Assembly: GCA_018673915.1 (NCBI GenBank)
Contig: JABHBK010000001.1
Location: forward strand, 68,069 to 132,068
Direction of reading: 5' to 3'
DNA from: Nitrospina sp.
Lineage (GTDB): Bacteria; Nitrospinota; Nitrospinia; Nitrospinales; VA-1
DNA: 64,000 bases
Shown: in pieces, positions 2,961-49,264 of the stretch
Position numbering within the stretch: position 1 is the stretch's first letter
Layout: each line of letters begins with the position of its first letter
The notes under the pieces: generated by a model
What the model was told of the DNA's origin: nothing
Seen by the model: only the letters and a program-made list of their open reading frames with translations
The model's database searches: none
Translations under genes and position numbers: made by a program

Positions 2961-4805
2961 TTACAAGTTTTTTAGCCTTTGTGAGCGGGCAAGATTGAGG
3001 GCCGATTTGGGTTGGGAATCCTTCTGGTTTCTATTTTCAGATTTAGATTGGATATTTACATTCAAGCTTGTTCCACCGAGCCCCACTAAATTGGAAGGGG
3101 TGAAGGATGTGGAGGTACTTGCCGTGCTAATGTTTTCTGCAGGTTTGGAATTCTTGGATTCTGAATTATTCTGTGTTTTCTGACTCGCTTGTCCAGGAGG
3201 AGTGAATGTCTCGCTGCGAATAGATGATGTAGGAGAAGCATTGCTGCTGGAAGTGGTGCTGACTCCTCCGAGTCCATTAAACGTTCTTTCCCCTGAGGGT
3301 TTGGCTCGAGTGATGTTGCGGGTTCCAAAGTCTACTCCTCCGATTCCTATTGTAGGAGTAGTGATGTTGAAATTTTGGGCTACTTCCACTCCACCAATGC
3401 CTACCGCAGGGCTATTAGCGTTTCTTATAATGGAAGCGACTGCTGGTGTAGACGGTTTTTTAGGTTCTGGTTTAATTTCTAGTTTAATATCTGTTTTAGT
3501 TTTCATTTTCGTTTTAATTTCTACTTTGACTTCTGGCTGGGAAGATTTAGGGGTTATAATTTTTTCAATTTTAGAGGTGGCCTTAGGGATGTCAATGGTT
3601 CCATTTTTTGCACTTAAGGTTCCATATGATTCGGTAGTTCCTTTAACAACGATTTTCCCAGCCATTCCCCAATCCATGAGGGTGTCAGCGTTAACTTCGG
3701 AACCCATATTGATGAGGGTGCGATAGGAGTTTTGCGTGTTGCCATTTATATCCCCGCCTATATAAGCACTGCCTTGTCCGGCGTTAGAAGAAACATCCAC
3801 CCGCGCTCCATTACGCAAGGTGACATTTTTTCCTGCAACTCTTACCAGGCCGCCTTTTTCCTGCCATCCTTTTCCGGAAGCATCAAGTTGACCGGATACA
3901 TTTACCGTTCCCTGATCTCCACCATCCAGGATAATAGCTCCTTCCTGATTCATGGAGATGGATTTTGCTTGAATGATGCCATCCATATTGATGACCTGAT
4001 CGAGCGCGTTTTGTGCTGTTGCGACCTTTAGGGTAACGATGCCGCCATCGGCATAAATTTTCCCGCTATTGGATACCTGAGCATCGAGTTCTTCCCCATA
4101 CATTCCGGTTGCTTGTTTCATTACAGTGTCATTAACGCCCAGATTAATCAGTTGGTCGCCATAAAGGTCGAGGGTGAAGGTATTGCCTGAAACAAGGCTG
4201 ACTCTTCCAAGCCTGGCGTTGATAGTGCCGGAGTTGGAAACGCCAGGAGCTACCAATGCTACCAAACCACCCTCGCTAACGGTGATGATTCCTTTGTTGA
4301 TGACGACACCCCTGGAATTGTTAGAGGGAAGGTTGAAATTGAAATTATCGTTCATAAACTCCCAATTGCTGATGTCGGTGGTGGTAGCTACCAGACCTCG
4401 AACATCTACTCTGGCTGTGTCCCCGAAAATTACACCATTGGGATTGATCAACACGAGACGACCGTTTGAATTGAGACTACCTAAAATGGATGACGCTTGG
4501 TCTCCTGTAACCCGATTCAGGGTTATGCCATTTGTGGAGGATAACTTAAAATCGACAGCTTCGTTAACCCCGACGCTGAAAGACCGCCAATCTATAATAG
4601 CCTTATCGGAACTCTGGGTGACATTAAGCTGTTGGGCATTAGGTTGGCTAAATGTTACATCACCAGTCTGCTTTGTTGGGTCTTGCGGAAGAGCATAAGC
4701 CAGATGAGTAACCAACAACGGAGAAAGGAATAGTGCGAGAAAAGTAAGGAGAATTTTTCCATCGCTGCTTTTATTGTCTGATTTTAATTTAAATATTTCT
4801 TTCAT
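2961..4805 (-). CDS. two-partner-secretion (TpsA-type) exoprotein with filamentous haemagglutinin N-terminal domain
   Basis: Has an extended signal peptide and the TPS-domain signature LNRVTGDQASSILGSLNSNGRLVLINPNGVIFG. A beta-helix-like G/N/V-rich body follows. The C-terminus is a K/E/P then S/T/N-rich low-complexity tail. Confidence 0.8.
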   Translation of the reverse strand: MKEIFKLKSDNKSSDGKILLTFLALFLSPLLVTHLAYALPQDPTKQTGDVTFSQPNAQQLNVTQSSDKAIIDWRSFSVGVNEAVDFKLSSTNGITLNRVTGDQASSILGSLNSNGRLVLINPNGVIFGDTARVDVRGLVATTTDISNWEFMNDNFNFNLPSNNSRGVVINKGIITVSEGGLVALVAPGVSNSGTINARLGRVSLVSGNTFTLDLYGDQLINLGVNDTVMKQATGMYGEELDAQVSNSGKIYADGGIVTLKVATAQNALDQVINMDGIIQAKSISMNQEGAIILDGGDQGTVNVSGQLDASGKGWQEKGGLVRVAGKNVTLRNGARVDVSSNAGQGSAYIGGDINGNTQNSYRTLINMGSEVNADTLMDWGMAGKIVVKGTTESYGTLSAKNGTIDIPKATSKIEKIITPKSSQPEVKVEIKTKMKTKTDIKLEIKPEPKKPSTPAVASIIRNANSPAVGIGGVEVAQNFNITTPTIGIGGVDFGTRNITRAKPSGERTFNGLGGVSTTSSSNASPTSSIRSETFTPPGQASQKTQNNSESKNSKPAENISTASTSTSFTPSNLVGLGGTSLNVNIQSKSENRNQKDSQPKSALNLARSQRLKNL

Positions 4806-14613: not shown

Positions 14614-15364
14614 AACCGATGAAGAAATAGAAGTCATGAAGGAAAGCTGCAAGCTTGCGGCAGAAGTCCTGATAATGATTGAGCCTTATGTAAAACCCGG
14701 AGTGACCACCGAAAGACTGGATCAGATTTGCCACGATTATATTGTGTCCCAGGGGGCGATTCCTTCACCCTTGAACTATCGTGGCTTTCCCAAGAGTATT
14801 TGTTCCTCCGTCAATGAAGAGATTTGTCATGGCATTCCTTCAAGCCGTAAGCTGCGTAACGGGGATATTGTCAACCTGGATATCACCACTTTCCTAAAAG
14901 GATTTCATGGGGATACCAGTCGCACGTTTTTTGTGGGAGCACCCCGTAAAAAAACTGAAAAACTTGTTGAGGTATGCAGGGAAGCCTTGCAAAAAGGAAT
15001 TGAATGCGTCAAGCCCGGTGGCCGCTTGGGAGATATTGGTGCAACGATCCAGCAACTTGCCGAGGGCCATGGATACTCAGTAGTACGCGAATTCTGCGGG
15101 CATGGGATTGGAAATAATTTTCACGAAGAACCCCAGATTCTACACTACGGAAATTTTGGAGATGGCCTGGAAATAAAAAAAGGCATGGTGTTTACCATTG
15201 AGCCTATGATCAATATGGGGAAACCAGACTTGAAAATTCTTTCCGATAAATGGACTGCTGTGACTGAAGACAGTAGCCTCTCTGCCCAGTTTGAACACAC
15301 CCTCTGCGTCACGGAATCGGGCGTAGAAGTCATGACCCGCCTTGATGGCCGCACTCAGTTTTAG
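14600..15364 (+). CDS. map: type I methionine aminopeptidase
   Basis: Pita-bread motifs GDIVNLD, HGDTSRTF, FCGHGIG, FTIEP and FEHT. Overlaps era by 14 nt. Confidence 0.95.
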   Translation: MIHFKTDEEIEVMKESCKLAAEVLIMIEPYVKPGVTTERLDQICHDYIVSQGAIPSPLNYRGFPKSICSSVNEEICHGIPSSRKLRNGDIVNLDITTFLKGFHGDTSRTFFVGAPRKKTEKLVEVCREALQKGIECVKPGGRLGDIGATIQQLAEGHGYSVVREFCGHGIGNNFHEEPQILHYGNFGDGLEIKKGMVFTIEPMINMGKPDLKILSDKWTAVTEDSSLSAQFEHTLCVTESGVEVMTRLDGRTQF

Positions 15365-15542
15365 CTTGTTTTTCTTCTGTTAGATTCGAAGCTTTTAGGA
15401 GAAACATGACTCAAACCCAGCGTGGTCATCTCCTCTTCATAATTTTGTGTGCCACAGTATAAAAACTTTATTCCGCGAATTTTAGTTTGGGTGGTCCAGA
15501 GTGAGGAGCCTTAAATTTATTTTTTCGCTGACCCATCCCAAC

Positions 15543-15557
15543 TGATAAGGCTTATCA
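15543..15557. promoter_or_regulatory. Fur-box-like 15-bp palindrome about 235 bp upstream of bfr
   Basis: TGATAAGGCTTATCA has the same TGAYAA-N3-TTATCA architecture as the four boxes at 16971-18393. Confidence 0.45.
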
Positions 15558-15791
15558 ATTCTGAAATTTATTCAAGGATACAACCCCTGGCTCACCTTGG
15601 TTTATTGGCGGATAGTGTGAAATGATATAGAGCGCAAATTTTTTAAAGCAATTTGTTGATACAAATTCTCATTATTAGGATCAATTGTAACCTGTTATAA
15701 ATAAAGGGGTTGACTTTGTTTTTAGGTTTGGTATTTTTGGTGGCAGAAGATCGTTTCGTAAACAAATTATTAAAAGTTCAGGAGGGATTAG

Positions 15792-16271
15792 ATGAAGGGT
15801 GACAAGGCGGTGCTCAGTGCTTTGAACGATGTATTGATGGCGGAATTAACGGCGATCAATATTTATTATATTCATTATAAAATGCAGGTAGATTGGGGAT
15901 ATGACAAGGTGGCGGCCCACTCGCGAGAAGAGTCTATGGGTGAAATGAAACATGCCGACCTAATGATTGATCGCATCCTGTTTCTGGATGGGGTTCCGAA
16001 TATGCAAAAATACGATACCGTTCTTGTGGGGAATAATGTCGAAGCTCAATTGAAGAATCAATATAAAATTGAAATCGCTCATGTGACCCGTCTTCGAAAA
16101 CATATTAAAACCTGCCTGGACAAAAATGATTTTGGTACAAAGGAAATTCTGGATGGCATTCTCGAAGATACGGAAGAGAGTGTGGATTGGATAGAAACGC
16201 AGTTCAATCGCATCAAAGACATAGGGATACAAAATTACTTGACGGAGAGCATGAACAAGGAAGGTAATTAA
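15792..16271 (+). CDS. bfr: bacterioferritin
   Basis: MKGDKAVLSALNDVLMAELTAINIYYIH...EESMGEMKHAD. The ferroxidase E/H ligands and the haem Met are in the usual places. Confidence 0.93.
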   Translation: MKGDKAVLSALNDVLMAELTAINIYYIHYKMQVDWGYDKVAAHSREESMGEMKHADLMIDRILFLDGVPNMQKYDTVLVGNNVEAQLKNQYKIEIAHVTRLRKHIKTCLDKNDFGTKEILDGILEDTEESVDWIETQFNRIKDIGIQNYLTESMNKEGN

Positions 16272-16298
16272 AAGAAAAATCAGTCGTTAATGGCAAGT

Positions 16299-16342
16299 AA
16301 GCCCCATTCCTATCAGAGTATTGATGGGATGGGGCTTTTTTT
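16299..16342. terminator. bidirectional stem-loop terminator between convergent bfr and fur
   Basis: AAGCCCCATTCC pairs with GGGATGGGGCTT (12 bp, one G-U) across a 15-nt loop, followed by TTTTTTT. Confidence 0.6.
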
Positions 16343-16366
16343 GTGACAAGTGAAGGATGAGGGCGC

Positions 16367-16795
16367 TTACTTGAGGCAATTTCGACAAATGCCAAATAAT
16401 TCCATTTTATGATTTTTTAAAGTAAATCCATATTGTTCGCAAATTTGGAGTTGGTATTTTTCAATGAGAGGGTGTTCAAATTCTATTGTTTCCCCACAAC
16501 ATGTGCAGATTAAATGGTCATGATGGCGAACATGAAACATGCGCTCGTATGTTTTCTTCCCATTCTGAAAGGAATGTGCTTCGACCAATCCACAATCCGT
16601 CAATAACTTTAAGGTGCGATACAGAGTTGCGATTCCCAGATCGGGCTGATGTAACCGAATTTTATTTTTGAGCGACTCTATTTCAACATGTCCCTCGAAG
16701 GATAAAAAAACTTCGAGTATCATTTTTCTTTGCGGTGTCCAACGAAGATTTTGTTGACGAAGGAAGTCTTTAAAGAGGTCAAACTCGTTCAGCAT
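16367..16795 (-). CDS. fur: Fur-family metalloregulator
   Basis: Winged-helix N-terminal region. HHDHLICTCCGETIEF...C..C metal-site motifs. Confidence 0.9.
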   Translation of the reverse strand: MLNEFDLFKDFLRQQNLRWTPQRKMILEVFLSFEGHVEIESLKNKIRLHQPDLGIATLYRTLKLLTDCGLVEAHSFQNGKKTYERMFHVRHHDHLICTCCGETIEFEHPLIEKYQLQICEQYGFTLKNHKMELFGICRNCLK

Positions 16796-16942
16796 ATTTT
16801 TAGTTGAGAAAGATTATCAAAGTCATAATATTGTGAAAAAAGTATAATAAAACCTGAAAAAATACAAGCTTTATGAGATAAAAGGTTTTAACTCGTTATA
16901 AATAGGGGGTTTAAAGAAATAAAAAATAATTGCGCATAGGGG

Positions 16943-16985
16943 TTGACAGGAGAGGTTTTTTTATCTATATTGATAACCGTTATCA
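16943..16985 (+). promoter_or_regulatory. sigma-70 promoter with overlapping Fur box 1
   Basis: TTGACA (16943-16948), a 17-bp spacer, then TATATT (16966-16971). The palindrome TGATAACCGTTATCA (16971-16985) overlaps the -10 and the start site. Confidence 0.7.
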
Positions 16986-17005
16986 ATTTAAAAGGCGGTG
17001 ACTCA

Positions 17006-17269
17006 ATGCAAGAACAAAATGTGAGAATTTGTAAGGGGCCGGGTTGCAAGGCATGGTCATCGGACCAAATTGCCAGAGAGTTGCTGGAGATTGGGGAAGC
17101 TTTAGATCTCGAGCAGTTAAAAGTTTGTCGCGTCCCTTGCATGAAAGTATGTGGTGGTGGGGCATCTTTTCGCGTCAATGCAAAATCTGCAATTATTAAA
17201 CTGAAAGAAGTGGACGATGTTTTGAATGTTTTAGGCATCCGTGAGGGAGCTGTAACTTGCCAGGCTTAG
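17006..17269 (+). CDS. thioredoxin-like [2Fe-2S] ferredoxin-family protein
   Basis: An internal ATG lies after AAGGCGG. The Cys pattern C-x4-C...C-x3-C (ICKGPGC ... VCRVPCMKVCGGG) is typical of TRX-like ferredoxins. Confidence 0.6.
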   Translation: MQEQNVRICKGPGCKAWSSDQIARELLEIGEALDLEQLKVCRVPCMKVCGGGASFRVNAKSAIIKLKEVDDVLNVLGIREGAVTCQA

Positions 17270-17295
17270 GCTAAAAAAATTTGCTTTTTTTATTT

Positions 17296-17325
17296 ATGAC
17301 AATGATTATCAAAATTAAATATAGT
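17296..17325 (+). promoter_or_regulatory. promoter with Fur box 2 in front of the DUF2325 gene
   Basis: ATGACA-18 bp-TATAGT. The palindrome TGACAATGATTATCA (17297-17311) covers the -35 and spacer. Confidence 0.6.
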
Positions 17326-17363
17326 TAACGTTTCTGCTTGGTTTTGAGAAAGGAGCCGGGTTT

Positions 17364-17660
17364 ATGAGTGTTGCAATAGTGGGCGGTTTGGATCGACTAA
17401 AAAGACTTTATGAGAAGAAGTGTGTGGATATGGGATATCAGGGCAAAGTATTTAGTAAGCGTGTCCCTAACCTTGCTAACAGGATGACCGGAGTCAATGG
17501 AATTGTCATTTTTACCGGTACGGTGGCACACCCCATGGTTGAAGAGGCCACCCGTGTGGCACGGATGTGGAATATTCCTCTTGAGCGCAGTCATTCCAGT
17601 AGTGTTTCAGCTTTAAAACGTTGCCTGGAGGGTTTTTCTGATGGTGAGAGGGCGGTATGA
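17364..17660 (+). CDS. DUF2325 domain protein
   Basis: VAIVGGLDRLKRLYEKK...VNGIVIFTGTVAHPMVEEATRVARMWNIPLERSHSSSVSAL fits my recollection of DUF2325. Confidence 0.55.
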   Translation: MSVAIVGGLDRLKRLYEKKCVDMGYQGKVFSKRVPNLANRMTGVNGIVIFTGTVAHPMVEEATRVARMWNIPLERSHSSSVSALKRCLEGFSDGERAV

Positions 17661-18058
17661 ATATTTTTCCAAGAAAAATTCTAATGGCTCATGGGGATAA
17701 GGAAGAAAGGGGAAAGCTGGCTATTATGTTAGCCCGCTTTGGTCATTGCATTTCATTTGCAGATGCCATTAGCAGGTCAAAGTTTTCCGTTGATGAATAT
17801 GATTTGATCATTGTGGATGAACATTTGGCCCAAAGCGCATGGTTTGCTTTTCTGCAACATCTTTCAAGCGAAAACCAGGCTAAAACCATTTTTTTGTCGA
17901 GCGAAGGCAAAAAAGAGAGAAGATTATTTCGCGATTCCATGGGTATCTATGAATGCCTGCAAAAGCCTGTGATACCGATTGACCTTGCAGTTGTGGTTTG
18001 TGATTTTTTTATATCATGTTTTCCAAATACAAAAATTGCTACTCCAATGAGTTTATAG
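17657..18058 (+). CDS. atypical (pseudo-)receiver domain protein
   Basis: REC-like layout KILMAHGD / DLIIVDEHL / TIFLSS / CLQKP. The usual N-terminal DD pair is HGD. The ATGA overlap with the DUF2325 gene suggests translational coupling. Confidence 0.45.
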   Translation: MNIFPRKILMAHGDKEERGKLAIMLARFGHCISFADAISRSKFSVDEYDLIIVDEHLAQSAWFAFLQHLSSENQAKTIFLSSEGKKERRLFRDSMGIYECLQKPVIPIDLAVVVCDFFISCFPNTKIATPMSL

Positions 18059-18190
18059 ATTGTTATGTTCCCGGAAGTTTTCTTTCAGGAACTTGGGCGG
18101 GTAAGAGGGAGTTGCGCCCCTTTTTGCCCGCTCACTCAGTTGTTTCAACTTACAGGTAAGTTACCAGATGTAAGGAAGCTATTTTATTTA

Positions 18191-18205
18191 TGATAATTGT
18201 TATCA
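18191..18205. promoter_or_regulatory. Fur box 3
   Basis: TGATAATTGTTATCA, preceded by a possible TTACCA-17/18-TATTTA promoter (18161-18190). Confidence 0.55.
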
Positions 18206-18332
18206 AAAAAGATTGCAACTTGTATGAATCCTGACCGTTATATAACTGTCTGAAATATTTGAAGTTATTTGTGGGTAGGTGGGGCTTGACTTAAAGAATG
18301 GCTCGAAACTCTTTGAAATCTATAATTTTAAA

Positions 18333-18393
18333 TTGACATAGGCTTAAATATTGATTATAAATAGTCGTATTATAAAAGTGATAACCATTATCA
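18333..18393 (+). promoter_or_regulatory. sigma-70 promoter plus Fur box 4 in front of the porin gene
   Basis: TTGACA (18333-18338), 17 bp, then TATAAA (18356-18361). The palindrome TGATAACCATTATCA (18379-18393) lies just downstream. Confidence 0.65.
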
Positions 18394-18478
18394 AAATTAA
18401 ATTATAAACTAATTTGCATCTTTTTTAATAATCATTTGTAGCTGAGTAATTTTTTTAGGAGAAGAAAGGAGTGGGTAA

Positions 18479-19732
18479 ATGAAACAAAATCTAGGTTTAG
18501 GGGTGTTGATGGTGTTGGCGTTTTTATTAATAACAACGCCGGGCTATTCTGCCAATACAGAGGAGCTGGAAAGGAAAATTGATCTGCTGGCCGATGAGGT
18601 GGACGATTTGAAAAGCCACGGTGCTGGCGGCGGTACATCTGACCATAACCGTGTCAGTGTGCATGGCTATGGGGAAATGCATTTTAACCATAATACCAGC
18701 TCGGGAACAACGCAAATTGACAATCACCGCTTTGTCATCGGGGTGCATGCTCTTTTATCCGACTGGATTCACCTCAATGCCGAAATCGACTTTGAACATG
18801 CGGCGCAGGAACTTGAGTTTGAATTTGGACATTTGGATTTTTTGCTGGACCCGGCCCTCAATATTCGTGCCGGAGTCATGCTGGCTCCCGTTGGACTGCT
18901 CAACGAATTCCATGAGCCGAATCTGTTCTGGACATCGGAACGGCCCTTGTTACAAAGCCGGTTGATTCCCACTAGTTGGAGTGCTGGAGGTGTGGGCATT
19001 TTTGGAACCCCCATGGAAGGTGTGAGCTACCGGCTTTATGCCATGAATTCTCTACAATCCATAACGGCTGATACTACGGCAAACGGGTCCGGTACAGGAG
19101 GGAATGGTGGATCAGGGGATTCTTTTTCCAGTAACGGTATTCGTGGCGGCCGTAAACAGGTCAATGATGCCATTGCCGATGATTTTAGTGTGTTTGCACG
19201 TGTAGAACTCACCAAGCTTTATCCCGGTCTGCAATTAGGTTTTTCCTGGGTGAACGGGGATACCACACATAATCTCATCAAAGAAGGCGGTAATATGAAC
19301 CTCCTTGAAGCAGATATAAGGTATCGCTGGAATTGGTTCGACATGAATGCTTCCATTGTGAATACCAGTGTTGATAATACATTAGAACTGAATAGATTTT
19401 GTACCGCAGCTACCAGTGGTTGTTCAGCCGGAATTGCTGAAAACAATTTTGGTTATAATGTTCAGGCGGGCGTGCATCTTCCCCAGTTGTTAGGGTGGAA
19501 GACCTCGCATGATATCGTCCCGCATTTCATGTTTGAGAGAGTACGAACTCAGGATGAGATGAATGGCGAGACAGCGCCCGACTACTCTAAAAATAGAGAT
19601 GCTGTTTATACTTTTGGAGTGGCCTACTTGCCAATTCCAGAGGTTTCTCTGAAGGTGGACCATACCATCACCAATACACAAGATGGAAAAACTGCTGACC
19701 AGTTTAATATGGCTGTCGCTTATATGTACTAG
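18479..19732 (+). CDS. iron-regulated outer-membrane porin-like beta-barrel protein
   Basis: Signal peptide, then an N-terminal coiled coil (NTEELERKIDLLADEVDDLKS). Alternating beta-strand pattern with a C-terminal aromatic end ...MAVAYMY. Two Fur boxes lie upstream. Confidence 0.65.
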   Translation: MKQNLGLGVLMVLAFLLITTPGYSANTEELERKIDLLADEVDDLKSHGAGGGTSDHNRVSVHGYGEMHFNHNTSSGTTQIDNHRFVIGVHALLSDWIHLNAEIDFEHAAQELEFEFGHLDFLLDPALNIRAGVMLAPVGLLNEFHEPNLFWTSERPLLQSRLIPTSWSAGGVGIFGTPMEGVSYRLYAMNSLQSITADTTANGSGTGGNGGSGDSFSSNGIRGGRKQVNDAIADDFSVFARVELTKLYPGLQLGFSWVNGDTTHNLIKEGGNMNLLEADIRYRWNWFDMNASIVNTSVDNTLELNRFCTAATSGCSAGIAENNFGYNVQAGVHLPQLLGWKTSHDIVPHFMFERVRTQDEMNGETAPDYSKNRDAVYTFGVAYLPIPEVSLKVDHTITNTQDGKTADQFNMAVAYMY

Positions 19733-19979
19733 TAGGTTGATGACTGTCCCTTTGGACACCATATCCTGGCACCTTGCAATGCTTGCTCCTCCAAGTATTT
19801 TGGGTGTCAGGATTTTTTGTTTCATTCCAGGATAGCGGAAGAGAAGATTTATAAAATCTTTGCGTCCCGGGGTGCTTTGCGGTAAAAAGCTCAGGGTCGG
19901 TGGGGCTATAATGACCTCTAGTTTTTTTTGACCTGCCTGAAATAATGACTGTCCAGATTTTCTAAGGTTTATACGTTTT

Positions 19980-20564
19980 ATGTTTTTAAGTAAATCAAAA
20001 ATTTTACTGACTTTTTTGATCGTGGTTTCAATGTTTGGCTTTTTTATTCCAGCCTCATTTTCAGGCGAGGAAGAAAAAGTGCTGGATGTTCAGGTTTATC
20101 TCACGAAAAAGCAGGCATTTGAAATCGCTTTTCCGGGAGCGGACAAAGTAGACCGGGAAAAAAAATGGCTGACGGATGCCCAGAAAAAAGCCATTGGCGA
20201 ACTTTGTTTGCAAAGTATTGAGACCAACCGGATCACTTTTTATGTGGGAAAACGAGGTGGGGTTACCATTGGTTACGCCATCATAGATCATGAGATTGGT
20301 AAATCGTTTCCTATCACCTTTATGACGGTTCTTAACGAAGAGGGTACGGTTCGGGATGTCGAGATCATGGTCTATCGCGAACCGCGCGGATGGGAAGTGA
20401 GGTATCCCTCCTTCATGGATCAATTTGCCGGGAGAACGGCGGATTCGGATTATCGCACTGTTAATTCCATTACCGGCGCTACCCTGTCGGTAAGGGCGAT
20501 GGTGAAGGGAGTTTCTCGCGCGACGGCGGCTTATAAGGTGTTGTATCTTTCCCAAAAACCCTGA
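19980..20564 (+). CDS. exported FMN-binding domain protein
   Basis: Signal anchor present. The C-terminal VNSITGATLSVRAMVKGV matches the FMN_bind flavinylation-site region (S/T-G-A-T). Confidence 0.65.
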   Translation: MFLSKSKILLTFLIVVSMFGFFIPASFSGEEEKVLDVQVYLTKKQAFEIAFPGADKVDREKKWLTDAQKKAIGELCLQSIETNRITFYVGKRGGVTIGYAIIDHEIGKSFPITFMTVLNEEGTVRDVEIMVYREPRGWEVRYPSFMDQFAGRTADSDYRTVNSITGATLSVRAMVKGVSRATAAYKVLYLSQKP

Positions 20565-20650
20565 GTCATTCGTTACATTTCTTTCCTTTTTTATAAAGGA
20601 TTTAGGGTTTATACTTTTCTATATATTTTCTCTTCCTTATCTTGGAAACC

Positions 20651-21343
20651 ATGAAAAATTGGATTTGCATTTTTGCGTTATTGATTTCAGCCTGTGCATC
20701 GTCCCCGTTAAGCAGGTCGAACCCTTTTGAGCACACCGAGCTTCTTTTAGACTCCGAAGAAGCTATTGAAGGGGTGATCGATGTTTCTGGAGAAGGGATT
20801 CCGCAAAAACTTTTAAATCGTACTAAGGCTATTGTGGTGTTCCCAAACTTGGTGAAGGCGGCTATGATAGCCGGCGCCCGAGTTGGAAAAGGGGTGGTGA
20901 TTGTTCGCTCACCGAAGACTGGAAAATGGAATCCTCCGGCTTTTGTAAAATCCCGGCAAGCCAGTTGGGGTCTTCAGGCGGGTATTCAGAAAGCCGAGTT
21001 GGTGCTTTTGATTATGACCAATAAAGGACTCAAGCAATTATTCAGGACGCAATATAATCTAGGGTCGGGGCCACAGATAGCGCTCGGGACAGTGGGGGAA
21101 ACTTTAAACTTGAATCTGGCTCTTAAAGAAAATGATATTTTTGCCTATTCCCGCATTAAAGGTCTGTTTGCAGGGCTTTCCTTTGATGGGACTATCATTT
21201 CTTCTGACAAGAATGCAAATTTTGAGTATTACGGGGAACCGGTTTCTAATCGGAATCTGCTCGCAGGCCATAAAGGAATCAAGGTTCCTGAATCCGGGCA
21301 GGCTTTTCTTGGAAGAATGAACCACCTTGCTCCTCCCTATTAA
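20651..21343 (+). CDS. SYLF (Ysc84/DUF500) domain lipoprotein
   Basis: Lipobox LLISAC. AIVVFPNLVKAAMIAGARVGKGVVIVR...WNPPAF...SWGLQAGIQKAELVLL. Confidence 0.65.
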   Translation: MKNWICIFALLISACASSPLSRSNPFEHTELLLDSEEAIEGVIDVSGEGIPQKLLNRTKAIVVFPNLVKAAMIAGARVGKGVVIVRSPKTGKWNPPAFVKSRQASWGLQAGIQKAELVLLIMTNKGLKQLFRTQYNLGSGPQIALGTVGETLNLNLALKENDIFAYSRIKGLFAGLSFDGTIISSDKNANFEYYGEPVSNRNLLAGHKGIKVPESGQAFLGRMNHLAPPY

Positions 21344-44476: not shown

Positions 44477-47113
44477 TTAATGGGTTAAACTCAAAACCTC
44501 TTGGTGGTCATCAAAAAATGCTGGGTCCATTTCACGAACAATGCCCTCCATGTCAATCAAGTCCGTGACCAAATCTTGAACCACTACCGTTCCCAGGATT
44601 CCTTTCCGTGTAAGAGATCTTTTTACAGTTATATTTTCTTCGACAATATCAAGAATTTGATCGACCACCAGGGCTACACTTTTATTTTGGTGCGTGTATA
44701 TGATCGTTTGAATCGTTGCATTCTTTTTGACCTGTTGGCTGGAATCGAAAAAATTTAAAAGATCAATAAGAGGTATGATTTCTCCTCGGTATTGAATGAC
44801 GTCATTGTTTCCTGAGCGTTCAATGTCCGAACATTTGAATTCCTCCAGGCGTGCGACAGTAGAAAGCGGGATGGAGTTTCGTCCTTTTTCTCCAACTCTA
44901 AAGATCAATAAGGTTTCCTTGTCAGTAACCTCATTGTCTGCCAGGCTTTTATCTTTCGAATCTGCCATGGCTTGCTCCTGGTTTTCACGGACTACCTGTG
45001 CCTTTTGAGCCAGACCCATTATGTCAAGGATCAGTGCCACGCTTCCGTCTCCCATAATGGTTGCTCCAGAAAAACCTGCGATTCCCTTCAATTGGTTTCC
45101 CAAGGGTTTCACTACAATTTCCTCCGCATCACAGATCTGCTCAACGACGAGGCCAAACTGTCTTTCATTGGCGTTTAAAACAACAATATTGGTCGCTGTT
45201 TGAGCACTTTCATTTTTTGAAATTCCCAGTTCAGAATTCAAATTTATGATGGGCAAAAGGTTACCTCGAAGACGATATACCGGGGTCCCTTGAATCGTTT
45301 CGATCGCTTTTTCAGACTGCTCCTCATTCAAACGGACCAGCTCCAGCAGATTCACTTGAGGTATTGCATACTGGTTGCCTCCTGTTGAAACGATCAAAGC
45401 TGGAATAATTGCCAGGGTTAAAGGAATTCTTACTTTCAGGGTGGTGCCTTCCCCTTGACAGGTATGAATATCAACCGTTCCACCAATTTTATCAATATTG
45501 GTTTTAACCACATCCATCCCGACACCACGACCGGATACATTTGTAACTGCTTTCGCTGTAGAAAGCCCAGGCATGAAAATAAGGTTCACCAATTCGCGCT
45601 CGCCCATTTTTGCAGCCTGCTCGCTGGTGATCAAACCTTTGCTCAAGGCTTTTTCTTTGAGGATAGAGGGGTCAATTCCACCGCCATCATCTGTGATTTC
45701 AATAATGACCTGTCCTCCCTCATGGTAGGATTTCAGCTGTAAAACGCCTTCCTCAGGTTTACCTAGGTCGCGTCTTACATCGGGGATTTCTATCCCATGG
45801 TCTACTGAGTTACGTATAATATGTGTTAGCGGATCCTTAATCGCCTCGATCAAGGTTTTGTCCAGCTCCGTTTCTTTTCCTTCCGTTTCAAGGCGAATTT
45901 TCTTGCCGCATTCCATGGACAAATCACGAACTATTCTGGGGAACTTGCTCCAAATTCCGCCTATAGGCTGCATCCGCGTTTTCATCACTCCTTCCTGAAG
46001 ATCAGAAGTCACCAAATTTAAATGCTGGGAAGTTTCCATGAAGCTGGCATCATGGTGAGAGGAACTAAACTGCAGAACCTGATTTCTAGCTAAGACCAGT
46101 TCTCCAACCAGGTTCATCAGCTTATCAAGCAACTGGACATCAACGCGAATACTGGAATCCTCCAGCTTGCGCTCTTCCTTTTTTGCCGTACCTGAGCCAG
46201 AAGATTTTTTAACTTTTCCATTGGATGGGGTTACTTCAGGTTTTCCGTTCCCGGGCGTAAGACCTGACACTTCAGGAGCCTCTTTAGTTAGGGCTATTTC
46301 TTTTTTGGAGGGTTCTGATTTTGTTCGATTCAGAACATCATTTTTAACAGAAAGCGCTATGCGGGCCGCCTCCCCAATTAAATCACCGGGAACTTTCAAT
46401 TCCATCAAGGTCGTTCCAAAGTCTTCTATGACCGCATCAAAATGGCTTTCGTTCAGGCCTTTCTCTTCTACAAGATATTTGTGCGTTTCCCTGAGTCCTC
46501 TTCCGTCATAATTACTGGGGCCGCCAAACGCGAAAGCCAAAAACTCTTTTTGCTTATTCAGAAGGTGGTTCAAGTCTGCGCCTTCAAAAAAATGACTGAT
46601 ACGGTCGTCATTTAGAACTTTTGCGTAAAACAGGTTGACCGTTGCATCGACCGCTTCTTGTCCACCCATTCTCTCAAAAAGGGATGCAGGCTTTGCACCA
46701 TTCCCATTTCCTGAGGCTGGTTTTCCAGTCGCATCTGCCCGCAGGCGTTCCATGGACTCAATTAATCCAGAAAAATTATGATCTCCTTCATTTCCCTGTT
46801 TAGTTACAGATGTGAATATTCTGCGTATTGAATCTGACAGTTCATGCAGGATATTCATGATTTCTGGAGTTGGTGCTACCTTGCCCTGCTGAAGCGCATC
46901 TAGAAAGTTTTCACCAGAGTGGGTTAGAGATTCGAGCTTGGTGTAACCAATTAATCCGCAGCTACCCTTGATGTTATGGATAGTTCGAAAAATACCTTCT
47001 AATAATTCCGGGGAATGGGGAGTTTCTTCCAGGCTAATCAGGTCCTGATCAAACCGATCCAGGTTCTCACGACTCTCGGCCACAAACTCCAAGATCATTT
47101 CATTGGCTTGCAT
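44477..47113 (-). CDS. cheA: CheA-type histidine kinase with embedded truncated-globin domain and two CheW-like domains
   Basis: ATG at 47113 follows AGGAAGGA. Hpt domain (FRTIHNIKGS), globin-like insert, dimerisation helix, HATPase (NSVDHGIE, DDGGGI, GRGVGMDVV), then two CheW-like modules. Confidence 0.92.
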   Translation of the reverse strand: MQANEMILEFVAESRENLDRFDQDLISLEETPHSPELLEGIFRTIHNIKGSCGLIGYTKLESLTHSGENFLDALQQGKVAPTPEIMNILHELSDSIRRIFTSVTKQGNEGDHNFSGLIESMERLRADATGKPASGNGNGAKPASLFERMGGQEAVDATVNLFYAKVLNDDRISHFFEGADLNHLLNKQKEFLAFAFGGPSNYDGRGLRETHKYLVEEKGLNESHFDAVIEDFGTTLMELKVPGDLIGEAARIALSVKNDVLNRTKSEPSKKEIALTKEAPEVSGLTPGNGKPEVTPSNGKVKKSSGSGTAKKEERKLEDSSIRVDVQLLDKLMNLVGELVLARNQVLQFSSSHHDASFMETSQHLNLVTSDLQEGVMKTRMQPIGGIWSKFPRIVRDLSMECGKKIRLETEGKETELDKTLIEAIKDPLTHIIRNSVDHGIEIPDVRRDLGKPEEGVLQLKSYHEGGQVIIEITDDGGGIDPSILKEKALSKGLITSEQAAKMGERELVNLIFMPGLSTAKAVTNVSGRGVGMDVVKTNIDKIGGTVDIHTCQGEGTTLKVRIPLTLAIIPALIVSTGGNQYAIPQVNLLELVRLNEEQSEKAIETIQGTPVYRLRGNLLPIINLNSELGISKNESAQTATNIVVLNANERQFGLVVEQICDAEEIVVKPLGNQLKGIAGFSGATIMGDGSVALILDIMGLAQKAQVVRENQEQAMADSKDKSLADNEVTDKETLLIFRVGEKGRNSIPLSTVARLEEFKCSDIERSGNNDVIQYRGEIIPLIDLLNFFDSSQQVKKNATIQTIIYTHQNKSVALVVDQILDIVEENITVKRSLTRKGILGTVVVQDLVTDLIDMEGIVREMDPAFFDDHQEVLSLTH
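46328..46687 (-). other. group-I truncated haemoglobin (Bac_globin-like) domain inside CheA
   Basis: SLFERMGGQEAVDATVNLFYAKVLNDDRISHFFEGADLNHLLNKQKEFLAFAFGGPSNYDGRGLRETHKYL...HFDAV, colinear with M. tuberculosis HbN as I recall it. Confidence 0.75.
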
Positions 47114-47189
47114 GATTGATTCCTTCCTTATTTCTTTAGTATTCACGGGCCTTACCTCCAGATAAAGTTCCCGAAACTGTTGGGAGTTT

Positions 47190-47242: not shown

Positions 47243-49264
47243 TTAGCCATTAAACTCGCTGACAATATTTTGCATTTCTGCCGCCAGTTTAGACAATTCA
47301 CTCGCTGCTGTTTGAGTATCCGTAGCACCTTCGGTGGTGCTATGAGCCGCCTGAGCCACACCGGCAATATTCTCGGCAATCTCTTGAGATCCGCGGGAGG
47401 CATCGGTGACATTACGGGTGATCTCGTTGGTGGTGGCCGACTGCTCCTCCACCGCACTGGCAATGGTGTTGGAGATATCGCTGATCTGGCCAATAACCCC
47501 GCTGATCTCACCAATAGCAGTTACAGCACTCTGAGTATCCGTTTGTATGGCGGAGATTTTACTGCTGATTTCCTCGGTAGCCTTGGCAGTCTGATTAGCC
47601 AGTTCCTTGACCTCGTTGGCGACTACGGCGAATCCTTTACCTGCTTCACCAGCACGTGCTGCTTCAATGGTGGCATTCAAGGCCAATAGATTGGTCTGTT
47701 CCGCAATCGAGGTGATGACTTTGATGACTTGGCCAATCTCAGCCGAACTGACTCCCAACTGGGTCACTGTCTTGTTGGTGGTCTCGGCCAACTGAACCGC
47801 ATCGCTGGTGACTTTGGTAGCCTGGTTGGCGTTATGAGCAATCTCTTTTATGCTTGCGCTCATTTCTTCCGAACCGGTAGCTACCGTTTGAATGTTCTGG
47901 TTCACCTGATCGGAGGCGGCAGAGACGACATTGGACTGAGCCGAAGTCTCTTCCGCATTTCCGGCCATTTGCTGGCTGGTGGCGGTCAACTCCTCTGAGG
48001 CTCCGGCAAGGGTCTGGGCTTTTTCCGCAACATTGTTAAGAACCTTCTGCATGTTTTCGTTCTGTTCTTTTTCGCGTTTTTCAGCCGCCAGTTTTTCGGT
48101 AATCACTTCCCAGGTAACCATGGGCCCGAGGTAATTTTTATCCTTATCATAGATAGCACTGACCAGAAGATCGAGGACCTCAGGACCCACTTGTATTTCT
48201 GCACGATGTGGCAGGTTATTGGGATCAGATAGAATTTTGCGCTGATGTGCAGGGTTCTTGTGGAAAACATCTATGGATGAACCCATTAATTGGTCCACTC
48301 GAATAGGAAGATGTTGTTCAATGGTTTTTAATGTTGTAACGGATGCTGGGTTGACGTAGGTGATTTGAAAGGTTTCTGCATCAGCAAAAAGCACGTTCAC
48401 TGGGGCATTTTCCATCATGGAGTTAACTCGGGCGACTTCATTCTCGGTCTTTAACTTTTGAGTTATAACGTCCCAAGTGACCATCGGTCCCAGGTAGTTC
48501 TTGTTTTCATCATAAATAGCGCTGACCAGAAGATCGAGGATCTCAGGCCCAACTTGTATTTCTGTACGATGCGGCAGGTTATTGGGATCAGAAAGAAGTT
48601 TTCTTTGGTGCGCGGGGTTCTTGTGAAAAACATCTATGCATTGTCCCATCAATTTATCCACAGGAATGGGTAAATATTGTTCAATGGTTTTTAACGTCTT
48701 TATGGAAGCAGGGTTGACATAGGTGATTTCAAAACTATCTTTATCGGCATATATGACGTTAACCGGGGCGTTCTCCATCATTGAGTTGACCCTATCCATA
48801 GCCCGTTTCGTGATATTGATTTTGGTGACATCTTCCCAGTTGACGACATAACCGGAAATCATACCATTGGAATCGTTGATTGAGTTTATGGTAGCGGCAA
48901 GCGTCACCCCACCAAAACCAAACTCAGCCGTGTGCGGCAAAGCAGAAGGATTGCGTAAAATTCTTTCAATCTTTTGCGGGTCTTTATGAAACCGGTGGAT
49001 GGAACCACCGACGATATCGTTCAGGTTAACCCCAAATGCTTCATTAATCTGGTCCTTGATGGTTTCCAAGGTGTTCACAGCACTTTGATTGGCGTAAACG
49101 AGAGTGAAATTTGTATCCGCCACCAGCACATTTGCTTGAACATTGTCCAGGCAGGAAAGCAGACCTCCCGAAGATTTCATTAAACCATTACTGCCATTTC
49201 CTCCACCAAACAGGCCGAGAAATCCAGATTTACTTGCAGATGATTGGGTGGCGAGCATATTCAT
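47243..49264 (-). CDS. soluble methyl-accepting chemotaxis protein with three N-terminal PAS domains
   Basis: No TM helix. Three PAS modules each carry FHK(N/D)P...W(D/E)(D/V). The C-terminal MCP signalling domain has ([29 protein letters not shown]). GGAGGA Shine-Dalgarno sequence. Confidence 0.92.
48092..48793 (-). repeat. tandem 363-bp duplication encoding PAS2 and PAS3 of the MCP
   Basis: GACCAGAAGATCGAGGA occurs at 48161 and 48524, an offset of 363. The protein copies differ at 20 of 113 aligned residues by my count. Confidence 0.9.

Follow-up and report, generated by a model that had tools for sequence, protein, structure and literature searches.

We analysed a 64-kb stretch of a metagenome-assembled genome (MAG) of marine Nitrospina (the window; all coordinates are positions within it) and found, at its adjacent fur and bfr genes, a group of palindromic sites that very probably marks the core Fur (iron) regulon of this organism, a reading to which we assign a probability of about 80%. 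Six 15-bp inverted repeats lie within 2.85 kb of the window, at fur, upstream of bfr, and ahead of genes for a thioredoxin-like [2Fe-2S] ferredoxin, for a DUF2325 protein with a receiver-like partner, and for an outer-membrane porin followed by an exported FMN-binding (FMN_bind) protein. The sites, their clustering, their geometry on the promoters, their conservation and the identities of the genes are all direct observations, and the idea of the original prediction, Fur operators beside fur and bfr ahead of mostly uncharacterised genes, came out strengthened from the comparison with other Nitrospinota. For this comparison we used an alignment scan with DUF2325, taking one genome per species, which gave 42 Nitrospinota and 38 Clostridia loci (labelled L0xx), with a DUF2325 identity range of 49-97% in the Nitrospinota loci. 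Homologues of the window proteins bear the names Nitrospina or Nitrospinae, and an identical porin protein is also found on marine Nitrospina MAG contigs (e.g. GCA_018676555.1).

Fur-box-like sites at the fur-bfr locus

The locus contains the following features (no strand is given for the boxes; PWM, position weight matrix).

15543-15557: distal bfr box (regular expression and PWM)
15792-16271, + strand: bfr, bacterioferritin (TIGR00754, Pfam Ferritin)
16367-16795, - strand: fur, 142 aa (PF01475)
16805-16819: fur box (regular expression and PWM)
16943-16971, + strand: ferredoxin promoter (TTGACA-17-TATATT, 11/12)
16971-16985: box 1 (regular expression and PWM)
17006-17269, + strand: thioredoxin-like [2Fe-2S] ferredoxin, 87 aa, cytoplasmic (signature of four Cys, profile against the PDB)
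17296-17325, + strand: DUF2325 operon promoter (ATGACA-18-TATAGT, 10/12)
17297-17311: box 2 (regular expression and PWM)
17364-17660, + strand: DUF2325 protein, 98 aa (PF10087)
17657-18058, + strand: degenerate receiver protein, 133 aa (sub-cutoff Response_reg)
18094-18134, + strand: hairpin 3' of the receiver-like gene (folding energy)
18191-18205: box 3 (regular expression and PWM)
18333-18361, + strand: porin promoter (TTGACA-17-TATAAA, read from the sequence)
18379-18393: box 4 (regular expression and PWM)
18479-19732, + strand: outer-membrane porin, 417 aa (AlphaFold2 (AF2) model, Foldseek, alignment)
19980-20564, + strand: exported FMN_bind protein, 194 aa (PF04205)

Direct reading of the sequence reproduced the four 15-bp palindromes of the original prediction in both position and letters: box 1 (TGATAACCGTTATCA at 16971, 29 bits in the PWM), box 2 (TGACAATGATTATCA at 17297), box 3 (TGATAATTGTTATCA at 18191) and box 4 (TGATAACCATTATCA at 18379), with the extension ATTATCAAAATTAAAT shared by boxes 2 and 4 as it had claimed. 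The pattern by which it summarised them, TGAYAAY-N3-TTATCA, has one N too many, being 16 nt long and without a single match in the window. The corrected form, TGAYAAY-N2-TTATCA, is a 7-1-7 inverted repeat and occurs at 4 sites where shuffled sequences gave an expectation of 0.00. A looser pattern, TGANAANNNTTNTCA, occurs at 6 sites (0.27 expected), all of them within 15543-18393, so that the total of four rises to six. The two additional sites are TGATAAGGCTTATCA at 15543, a perfect 7-1-7 palindrome about 250 bp upstream of bfr, and TGAGAAAGATTATCA at 16805, which occupies the positions 10-24 nt upstream of the fur start codon. All six carry 0-2 mismatches to TGATAATNATTATCA. When a PWM built from the sites was run over the whole window, the six scored 18-29 bits and the next match 13.3 (shuffle range up to 16), and no comparable copy was found beyond the six.

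The classical Fur operator contains the 7-1-7 motif TGATAATnATTATCA within a 19-bp Fur box, and Fur autoregulation is known from Bacillus subtilis and E. coli. The Nitrospina sites resemble it in their half-site, in their 15-bp inverted-repeat geometry, in lying over -35, -10 or start positions and in having an operator on fur itself. They differ from it in that position 7 is often C (TGATAAC) and in their targets, which in the window genome include no siderophore, TonB or Feo genes.

The profile-based gene calls agree with the earlier statement that fur and bfr are adjacent with the cluster of boxes beside them. Bfr matched TIGR00754 above its cutoff (2e-49) together with Pfam Ferritin. The regulator matched PF01475 at 5.5e-35; its best NCBIfam matches were Fur models, with PerR and Zur lower, and its nearest solved relative was Campylobacter jejuni Fur (4ets/6d57, 1.9e-32), with PerR (2fe3, 7e-19) behind it and Zur weaker still. 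It fell below the curated cutoff of every NCBIfam Fur equivalog (96.8 bits vs 220). Judged by these comparisons, the window regulator is closest to true Fur among the Fur family.

According to the original prediction each box overlaps or abuts a good promoter, which is the case for boxes 1, 2 and 4, and also for the fur box, but not for box 3. The last base of TTGACA-17-TATATT is also the first of box 1, which covers the end of the -10 element and the predicted transcription start. An alignment of this upstream region from 16 ferredoxin orthologues showed an invariant TTGACA, a spacer of 17 nt with varying sequence, a conserved -10 that continues into the box as TATAT-TGATAAY.RTTATCA, and a variable leader. 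Box 2 overlaps the -35 hexamer of ATGACA-18-TATAGT. Box 4, which occupies about +11 to +25 of the predicted porin transcript, follows TTGACA-17-TATAAA after 17 nt; the -35, the -10 and their spacing to box 4 are kept across eight loci. The fur box, as read from the sequence, lies between a TATTAT -10-like element and the fur ATG and is predicted to be an autoregulatory operator. Outside this pattern are box 3, which has no convincing promoter, and the distal bfr box, which overlaps no promoter and lies about 150 bp upstream of the bfr -35 (at 15710).

Box 3 is located 288 nt before the porin ATG and makes better sense as an additional operator, lying upstream, for control of the porin, because a strong hairpin, the probable end of the DUF2325 operon, closely precedes it and because the spacing of the two boxes is conserved (176-211 bp in L004, L010, L018, L023, L028, L029 and L031). 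The hairpin lies at 18094-18134 (-26.9 kcal/mol, z = -4.57), and L031 has an equivalent GC hairpin with a T run ahead of its box 3. Between the ferredoxin and DUF2325 genes no terminator was found (z = 1.04), and read-through from the ferredoxin promoter into DUF2325 is possible. A Fur-controlled small RNA in the island was considered and rejected: Rfam gave nothing at E <= 1 in 15000-21000 and nothing at gathering score in the whole window, and the 128-nt interval between boxes 3 and 4 showed no unusual fold (z = 0.31) and no sequence conserved between clades.

Further repeated elements were observed in the same region. Some 30 nt downstream of box 4, at 18418-18436, comes a half-site-like element, TTTTAATAATCATT, whose sequence complements the right half of boxes 2 and 3 (inverted repeats I4 and I8); it may continue the row of Fur sites into the porin leader. 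A 27-nt direct repeat, TTKTAACYYGTTATAAATARRGGGGTT, is present at 15685-15711, just upstream of the bfr -35, and at 16886-16912, in the fur-ferredoxin intergenic region (2 copies vs 0.09 expected). As a candidate site of a second regulator this repeat (GTTATAAATA-RGGGGTT) was set aside, being poorly kept in other loci: upstream of bfr its core GTTATAAA[TA]A was seen, among the other loci, only in L004, the closest relative, and weakly in L011.

Conservation of the boxes and of the gene order

In Nitrospinota the order map-bfr-fur-ferredoxin-DUF2325-receiver-porin-FMN_bind is kept, with an EAL gene after the receiver as an optional member. The strict regular expression found 106 boxes in 430 kb of Nitrospinota loci, most of them at promoter positions of the island genes. 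The PWM, for this purpose built from the six window sites only, placed a site upstream of the ferredoxin gene in 28 of 28 loci, upstream of DUF2325 in 32 of 40 and upstream of the porin in 14 of 17, as well as within 300 bp upstream of bfr in 21 of 25. Near the fur start a box was found by the regular expression in 19 of 27 loci, mostly 9-13 nt from the start codon, and by the PWM in 20 of 27. Just 9 of the 201 PWM matches in Nitrospinota loci fell inside mapped island open reading frames.

The 38 Clostridia loci (420 kb) contained 0 boxes by the strict regular expression, and the 300 bp upstream of their DUF2325 genes contained 0 even when up to 2 mismatches were allowed (0.21 expected); the link between DUF2325 and Fur therefore does not extend to Clostridia. 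The co-occurrence of DUF2325 and ferredoxin genes with Fur boxes in other genomes, which the original prediction had put up for checking, is seen in the Nitrospinota loci and not in the DUF2325 loci of Clostridia.

Sister clades that have no porin at this position fill the same slot with a box followed by exbB, exbD, exbD, tonB and a gene for a TonB-dependent receptor. The claim that the targets are not classical uptake genes is accordingly right for the window genome and wrong for these sister Nitrospinota. The presence of an exbB-exbD-tonB system and its receptor behind the same box ties the motif to classical iron acquisition.

An 83-aa gene fragment was noticed next to the box upstream of DUF2325 in distant Nitrospinota (L035 6054-6305, - strand; also L039, L040 and L042). 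It resembles the Cys-rich C-terminal dimerisation half of Fur (31-35% identity) and could be a truncated Fur paralogue or a pseudogene.

From these arrangements a simple scheme can be proposed, in which the binding of Fur, the sign of the regulation and the functions of the products are predictions from the sequence. With sufficient iron, Fe2+-Fur dimers would bind the 15-bp 7-1-7 operators and block RNA polymerase in four control regions: the ferredoxin promoter, whose -10 and start site are covered by the box; the DUF2325/receiver promoter, whose -35 is covered; the porin promoter, with one operator shortly after the start and another about 190 bp upstream; and that of fur, with its operator between -10 and ATG. 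Under iron scarcity the operators would be freed of Fur, allowing transcription of all these units. The distal bfr site overlaps no promoter, and activation or anti-silencing in response to iron seems likelier there than repression. Regulation of this kind is well known; what would be new is its description in this phylum, with an unusual set of targets. In the literature searched we found no description of a Fur regulon in Nitrospina or other Nitrospinota.

Predicted products of the regulon

The first of the targets had been called a thioredoxin-like [2Fe-2S] protein, and this call is supported by its cysteines and, with marginal E-values, by profile matches. Four ligand-type Cys (C9, C14, C45 and C49, as CX4C...CX3C) are invariant in 20 orthologues and align to the ligand Cys of HydC and HydA. 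Searched against PDB sequences, the profile matched the HydA C-terminus best (7p5h, E 0.0016), followed by HydB, HydC and NuoE/NDUFV2, and the remaining matches were few, weak and chance-like (all E >= 0.47). The protein has no match in Pfam or NCBIfam.

Bfd is the bacterioferritin-associated [2Fe-2S] ferredoxin, which is repressed by Fur and encoded beside bfr in E. coli and Pseudomonas. The Nitrospina protein is likewise a small cytoplasmic protein of [2Fe-2S] type under a Fur box and beside bfr. It belongs to another fold family, thioredoxin-like with CX4C...CX3C and without the Bfd motif: it has no PF04324 match and its Cys spacing differs from that motif. Its gene adjoins bfr in most loci, and in L037 box, ferredoxin and bfr follow each other on the same strand with a 44-bp gap. 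Because this adjacency is so constant, a Bfd-like role suggests itself, and we tentatively propose, by analogy with Bfd and Bfr and at somewhat less than even odds, that the ferredoxin might donate the electrons that release stored iron.

The next gene encodes a DUF2325 protein, as predicted (PF10087 2.3e-21, 76.2 bits vs a cutoff of 33.6), and its translational coupling to the following open reading frame is real, the two overlapping by ATGA (17660/17657). The AF2 model of the DUF2325 protein (predicted local distance difference test score, pLDDT, 89.6) has four beta-alpha units in a small alpha/beta, Rossmann-like fold. An attempt to derive its function from structure was abandoned, Foldseek having returned generic Rossmann- or receiver-like matches only (E > 1e-3), and its profile gave nothing meaningful against PDB sequences. 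The description of the partner as a pseudo-receiver is plausible. Its Response_reg score stays below the cutoff (20.9 bits vs 30.2). Of the typical receiver residues only Lys103-Pro104 (K103-P104) is kept throughout; the acidic pair of beta1 is missing, and some orthologues (L029, L031 and L033) have Asn in place of the acceptor D54. The fold is receiver-like, and phosphorylation of the protein is improbable. The pairing with DUF2325 is kept in 23 loci and in the distant locus L035.

In many relatives the receiver-like gene and box 3 are separated by an additional gene of roughly 0.9 kb, for which there is no counterpart in the window. In L025 (7811-8602) this gene encodes an EAL cyclic di-GMP (c-di-GMP) phosphodiesterase, with genes at equivalent positions in L004, L007, L023, L028 and L029. 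Together with GGDEF and EAL genes beside Fur in Acidobacteriota, the EAL neighbour is a hint of a link to c-di-GMP. GGDEF and HD proteins have also been placed in the Fur regulon of Desulfovibrio (PMC545781). We propose that the DUF2325 protein and its receiver-like partner would act together as a small pair in signalling or as an adaptor; the link to c-di-GMP is a conjecture that we consider rather unlikely.

In another member of the family, C. jejuni cj1384c, the DUF2325 gene stands next to katA, is regulated by PerR and rises 352-fold under photo-oxidative stress (PMC9426514). The two proteins share the Pfam family and control by a Fur-family regulator (PerR there, predicted Fur in Nitrospina). 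Cj1384c has 7 Cys and a catalase context. In Nitrospina the protein shows no conserved cluster of Cys, its partner is a degenerate receiver, and the gene context is one of iron.

The last unit had been described as a porin with a coiled-coil head followed by an exported FMN-binding protein, and both descriptions are supported, the head as an N-terminal helix. The porin begins with a signal peptide and a periplasmic helix (residues 27-46), and an AF2 model of moderate confidence (pLDDT 67.5) gives it a barrel of 16 strands. Its best Foldseek matches were OmpU, OmpC, OmpF and PorB (E 4e-12 to about 1e-11, TM-score 0.5-0.6), and with these and its C-terminus (...AYMY) it has the predicted fold of a 16-strand general porin. 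PF07396 did not match the window protein, and weakly matched 3 of 16 orthologues and some distant relatives. The family is large (2692 representatives at E <= 1e-3) and unnamed, its relatives, among the matches listed, being hypothetical proteins of Nitrospinota or Acidobacteriota. The porin alignment further shows dense invariant His, Glu and Asp residues (e.g. H68, H83, E102, D104, E106, E113, E115, H145 and E146), which are suggestive of metal binding, a Gly-rich loop (G-x-G-x-GG-x-GG), and a variable region with a Cys conserved in most orthologues. The second protein matches PF04205 (3.7e-08, 34.3 bits vs a cutoff of 22) behind an N-terminal hydrophobic signal and contains the ApbE flavinylation motif S-I-T-G-A-T168-L-S, whose residues G166-A167-T168-L169 do not vary among 16 orthologues from Nitrospinota, from Acidobacteriota and from metagenome contigs without placement.

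We then considered seven porin contexts, all outside the 42 + 38 DUF2325 loci and six of them outside Nitrospinota. The gene after the porin encodes a homologue of the window FMN_bind protein in 7 of 7.

GGDEF-EAL-Fur-ApbE-porin-FMN_bind-TM (Acidobacteriota)
ApbE-porin-FMN_bind-TM (two loci listed)
porin-FMN_bind-Aq_1264_TM-ApbE
FeoA-FeoB-porin-FMN_bind-Aq_1264_TM
PepSY_TM-porin-FMN_bind
another lineage, of Nitrospinota-like synteny, with DUF2325 ahead of the porin and boxes on both promoters

Ten long members of the porin family comprise 8 ApbE-porins and 1 FTR1-porin. In these proteins (P0238, P0242, P0253, P0295, P0301, P0309, P0349 and P0236 with ApbE; P0249 with FTR1) an N-terminal ApbE flavin-transferase domain or an FTR1 iron permease domain is joined to the barrel, as a fusion or as an artefact of assembly or gene calling; a fusion of a periplasmic enzyme to a barrel is unusual. 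The small membrane protein that follows in other phyla is Pfam Aq_1264_TM, a name that suggests the Aquifex gene aq_1264. Two Acidobacteriota loci of high GC content have 7-1-7 palindromes of the form TGAGAyTG..TCTCA about 45 bp upstream of an apbE-porin-FMN_bind operon (L086 4907-4921, TGAGACTGCATCTCA; L091 5826-5840, TGAGATTGAGTCTCA), the latter the only one of its kind in 15.4 kb; they may be a variant of the Fur box. No ApbE, FTR1, Feo, small membrane partner or membrane cytochrome gene lies within the 64-kb window.

These observations can be set beside two bodies of published work. In Geobacter metallireducens and Desulfuromonas a predicted Fur-regulated porin, psp, has two tandem Fur boxes and weak similarity to PF07396 (PMC545781); it has an Aquifex homologue and was proposed to admit ferrous iron (Rodionov et al. 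2004, PMC545781). The Nitrospina porin is like psp in its predicted Fur boxes, two in number, and in the weak PF07396 matches of 3 of 16 orthologues, a likeness by shared properties, and no Geobacter or Aquifex names were among the porin relatives listed. The 2004 account of psp has neither an FMN-binding partner nor ApbE (PMC545781). Flavinylation by ApbE, for its part, has been tied to iron assimilation through PepSY-like clusters, P19/FTR1 clusters with FMN_bind, and VIT1 clusters (Meheust et al. 2021, PMC8238504), with Fur control reported for the PepSY-like ones (PMC8238504), and DUF4405 cytochromes are membrane partners of flavinylated proteins (PMC10979944). The Nitrospina locus is like these systems in its exported FMN_bind protein with an ApbE target motif and in the genomic links of its porin family to ApbE, FTR1, PepSY_TM and a small His-containing membrane protein. 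It is unlike them in that the partner is a dedicated 16-strand outer-membrane porin and in that the Nitrospina pair stands alone, with no gene for ApbE or for membrane electron transfer nearby. The word 'porin' is absent from the main text of PMC8238504 and of PMC10979944, and we regard the linkage of porin, FMN_bind and ApbE as a new result.

The best-supported functional inference from these comparisons is that the porin-FMN_bind unit would make up the outer part of a reductive route of iron uptake, released from repression by Fur and interchangeable with a TonB system at this locus. As to what it does, the porin would admit iron species and the flavinylated FMN_bind protein would reduce Fe(III) in the periplasm, for import by a transporter encoded elsewhere; we hold this role to be about evenly balanced between right and wrong. 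The linkage of the pair in Acidobacteriota and metagenome contigs supports, and does not prove, reductive iron uptake of this sort. Somewhat below even odds we place the broader idea that the pair could be the outer half of an undescribed, widespread pathway of flavin-based reductive iron uptake in Nitrospinota, Acidobacteriota and others. In this pathway Fe(III) species would enter through a dedicated 16-strand porin and be reduced in the periplasm by a protein to which ApbE has covalently attached flavin, a small membrane cytochrome of Aq_1264/DUF4405 type would supply the electrons, and Feo or FTR1 would import the Fe(II); in Nitrospina it would be under direct two-operator control by Fur. 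A porin-flavoprotein conduit resembling MtrCAB was also considered and judged unlikely, since in the AF2 model a barrel of 16 strands appears too narrow to sheathe a protein.

The pair might instead be controlled by Fur without serving iron import, as an iron-sparing periplasmic carrier or a part of extracytosolic electron transfer, with the porin taking another substrate. Flavodoxin can replace ferredoxin. Flavin carriers that are repressed by Fur and replace iron proteins are known (e.g. fld in Desulfovibrio, PMC545781), FMN_bind domains occur in many redox systems unrelated to iron (PMC8238504), and in Nitrospina no inner-membrane iron transporter gene stands beside the pair. Against this, the FMN_bind homologue follows the porin throughout the contexts outside the scanned loci, the pair recurs with FeoAB, FTR1, PepSY_TM and Fur, and sister Nitrospinota occupy the slot with a TonB-dependent uptake system, so we regard an iron-sparing function as unlikely, though not negligible.

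Identity of the regulator and weight of the evidence

The boxes might also serve another sensor of the Fur family, PerR for peroxide, Mur for manganese or Zur for zinc, in which case the island would respond to oxidative stress or to another metal. Redox proteins such as ferredoxins and flavoproteins, and bacterioferritin, are typical PerR targets in some bacteria, and the ferredoxin, flavoprotein and bacterioferritin of the island would fit this list. The PerR half-site is TTATAAT and that of Zur TCGTAAT, both unlike the Fur half-sites TGATAAT/ATTATCA, and the half-site found here, TGATAA/TTATCA, is of Fur type. The PerR control of cj1384c beside katA and its strong induction by photo-oxidative stress (PMC9426514) speak for such a sensor, as does the score of the regulator under all NCBIfam Fur equivalog cutoffs. 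Its much greater nearness to the solved structures of Fur than to those of PerR or Zur speaks against it, together with the same motif ahead of exbB-exbD-tonB and a TonB-dependent receptor in sister clades and the links of the porin family to FeoAB and FTR1. Taken together, these points make a sensor other than Fur improbable.

That the palindrome is a non-regulatory repeat (a repetitive extragenic palindromic (REP)- or miniature inverted-repeat transposable element (MITE)-like element, or a recombination site) clustered by chance can be practically dismissed, for short, AT-rich and palindromic as the sites are, and with a 27-nt stretch common to boxes 2 and 3 (89% identity), they have no copies elsewhere in the 64 kb, rarely fall inside mapped island genes in Nitrospinota (the 9 of 201 above), and keep a fixed register to -35/-10 elements and start codons while their flanks diverge among species at 50-97% protein identity, a position-specific conservation that excludes such a repeat.

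Several observations nevertheless weigh against the assignment of the region to a Fur regulon, or against parts of it. The support for all six predicted operators comes from sequence and comparative genomics; box 3 lacks a recognisable promoter; and the bfr site lies 250 bp off its gene, where Fur repression of an iron-storage gene would in any case be counter-intuitive. The ferredoxin was assigned on marginal E-values (best 0.0016), and an Fe-S protein induced by iron shortage is paradoxical unless its role is Bfd-like, which it would have to play as a protein outside the Bfd family. Expression data for DUF2325 come from Cj1384c alone and connect it with PerR and oxidative stress, not with iron uptake (PMC9426514), and the window offers no ApbE, FTR1, Feo or membrane cytochrome for the proposed pathway.

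Two further features of the window deserve mention. A gene at 44477-47146 (- strand) encodes a CheA-type chemotaxis kinase of 889 aa in which a truncated (bacterial-like) globin (PF01152, residues 155-253, E 3.9e-14) is inserted between the Hpt and dimerisation domains, with two CheW-like stretches; it adjoins a gene for a PAS-containing methyl-accepting chemotaxis protein (47243-49264, - strand) and may be a haem-based gas-sensing CheA. At 2961-4805 (- strand), and unrelated to the Fur island, lies a gene for a 614-aa protein with a two-partner-secretion (TPS) domain (PF05860, 9.6e-34).

Nitrospina carries out most of the nitrite oxidation in the ocean, and the key enzyme of this process is rich in iron, so that its sensing and acquisition of iron matter for the nitrogen cycle where waters are poor in iron. 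The locus provides a compact set of predicted operators for Fur in an uncultured lineage, through which iron limitation can be linked to several uncharacterised families: DUF2325, the mini ferredoxin of thioredoxin-like type, the degenerate receiver and the porins, whose unnamed family has thousands of members. The linkage of this porin with ApbE, FMN_bind, FeoAB, FTR1 and PepSY would add an outer-membrane component to flavinylation-based iron assimilation. If the proposal for the porin and its FMN_bind partner is true, their pathway could be a main iron route of the ocean's dominant nitrite oxidiser, in those lineages that have no TonB system at the locus.

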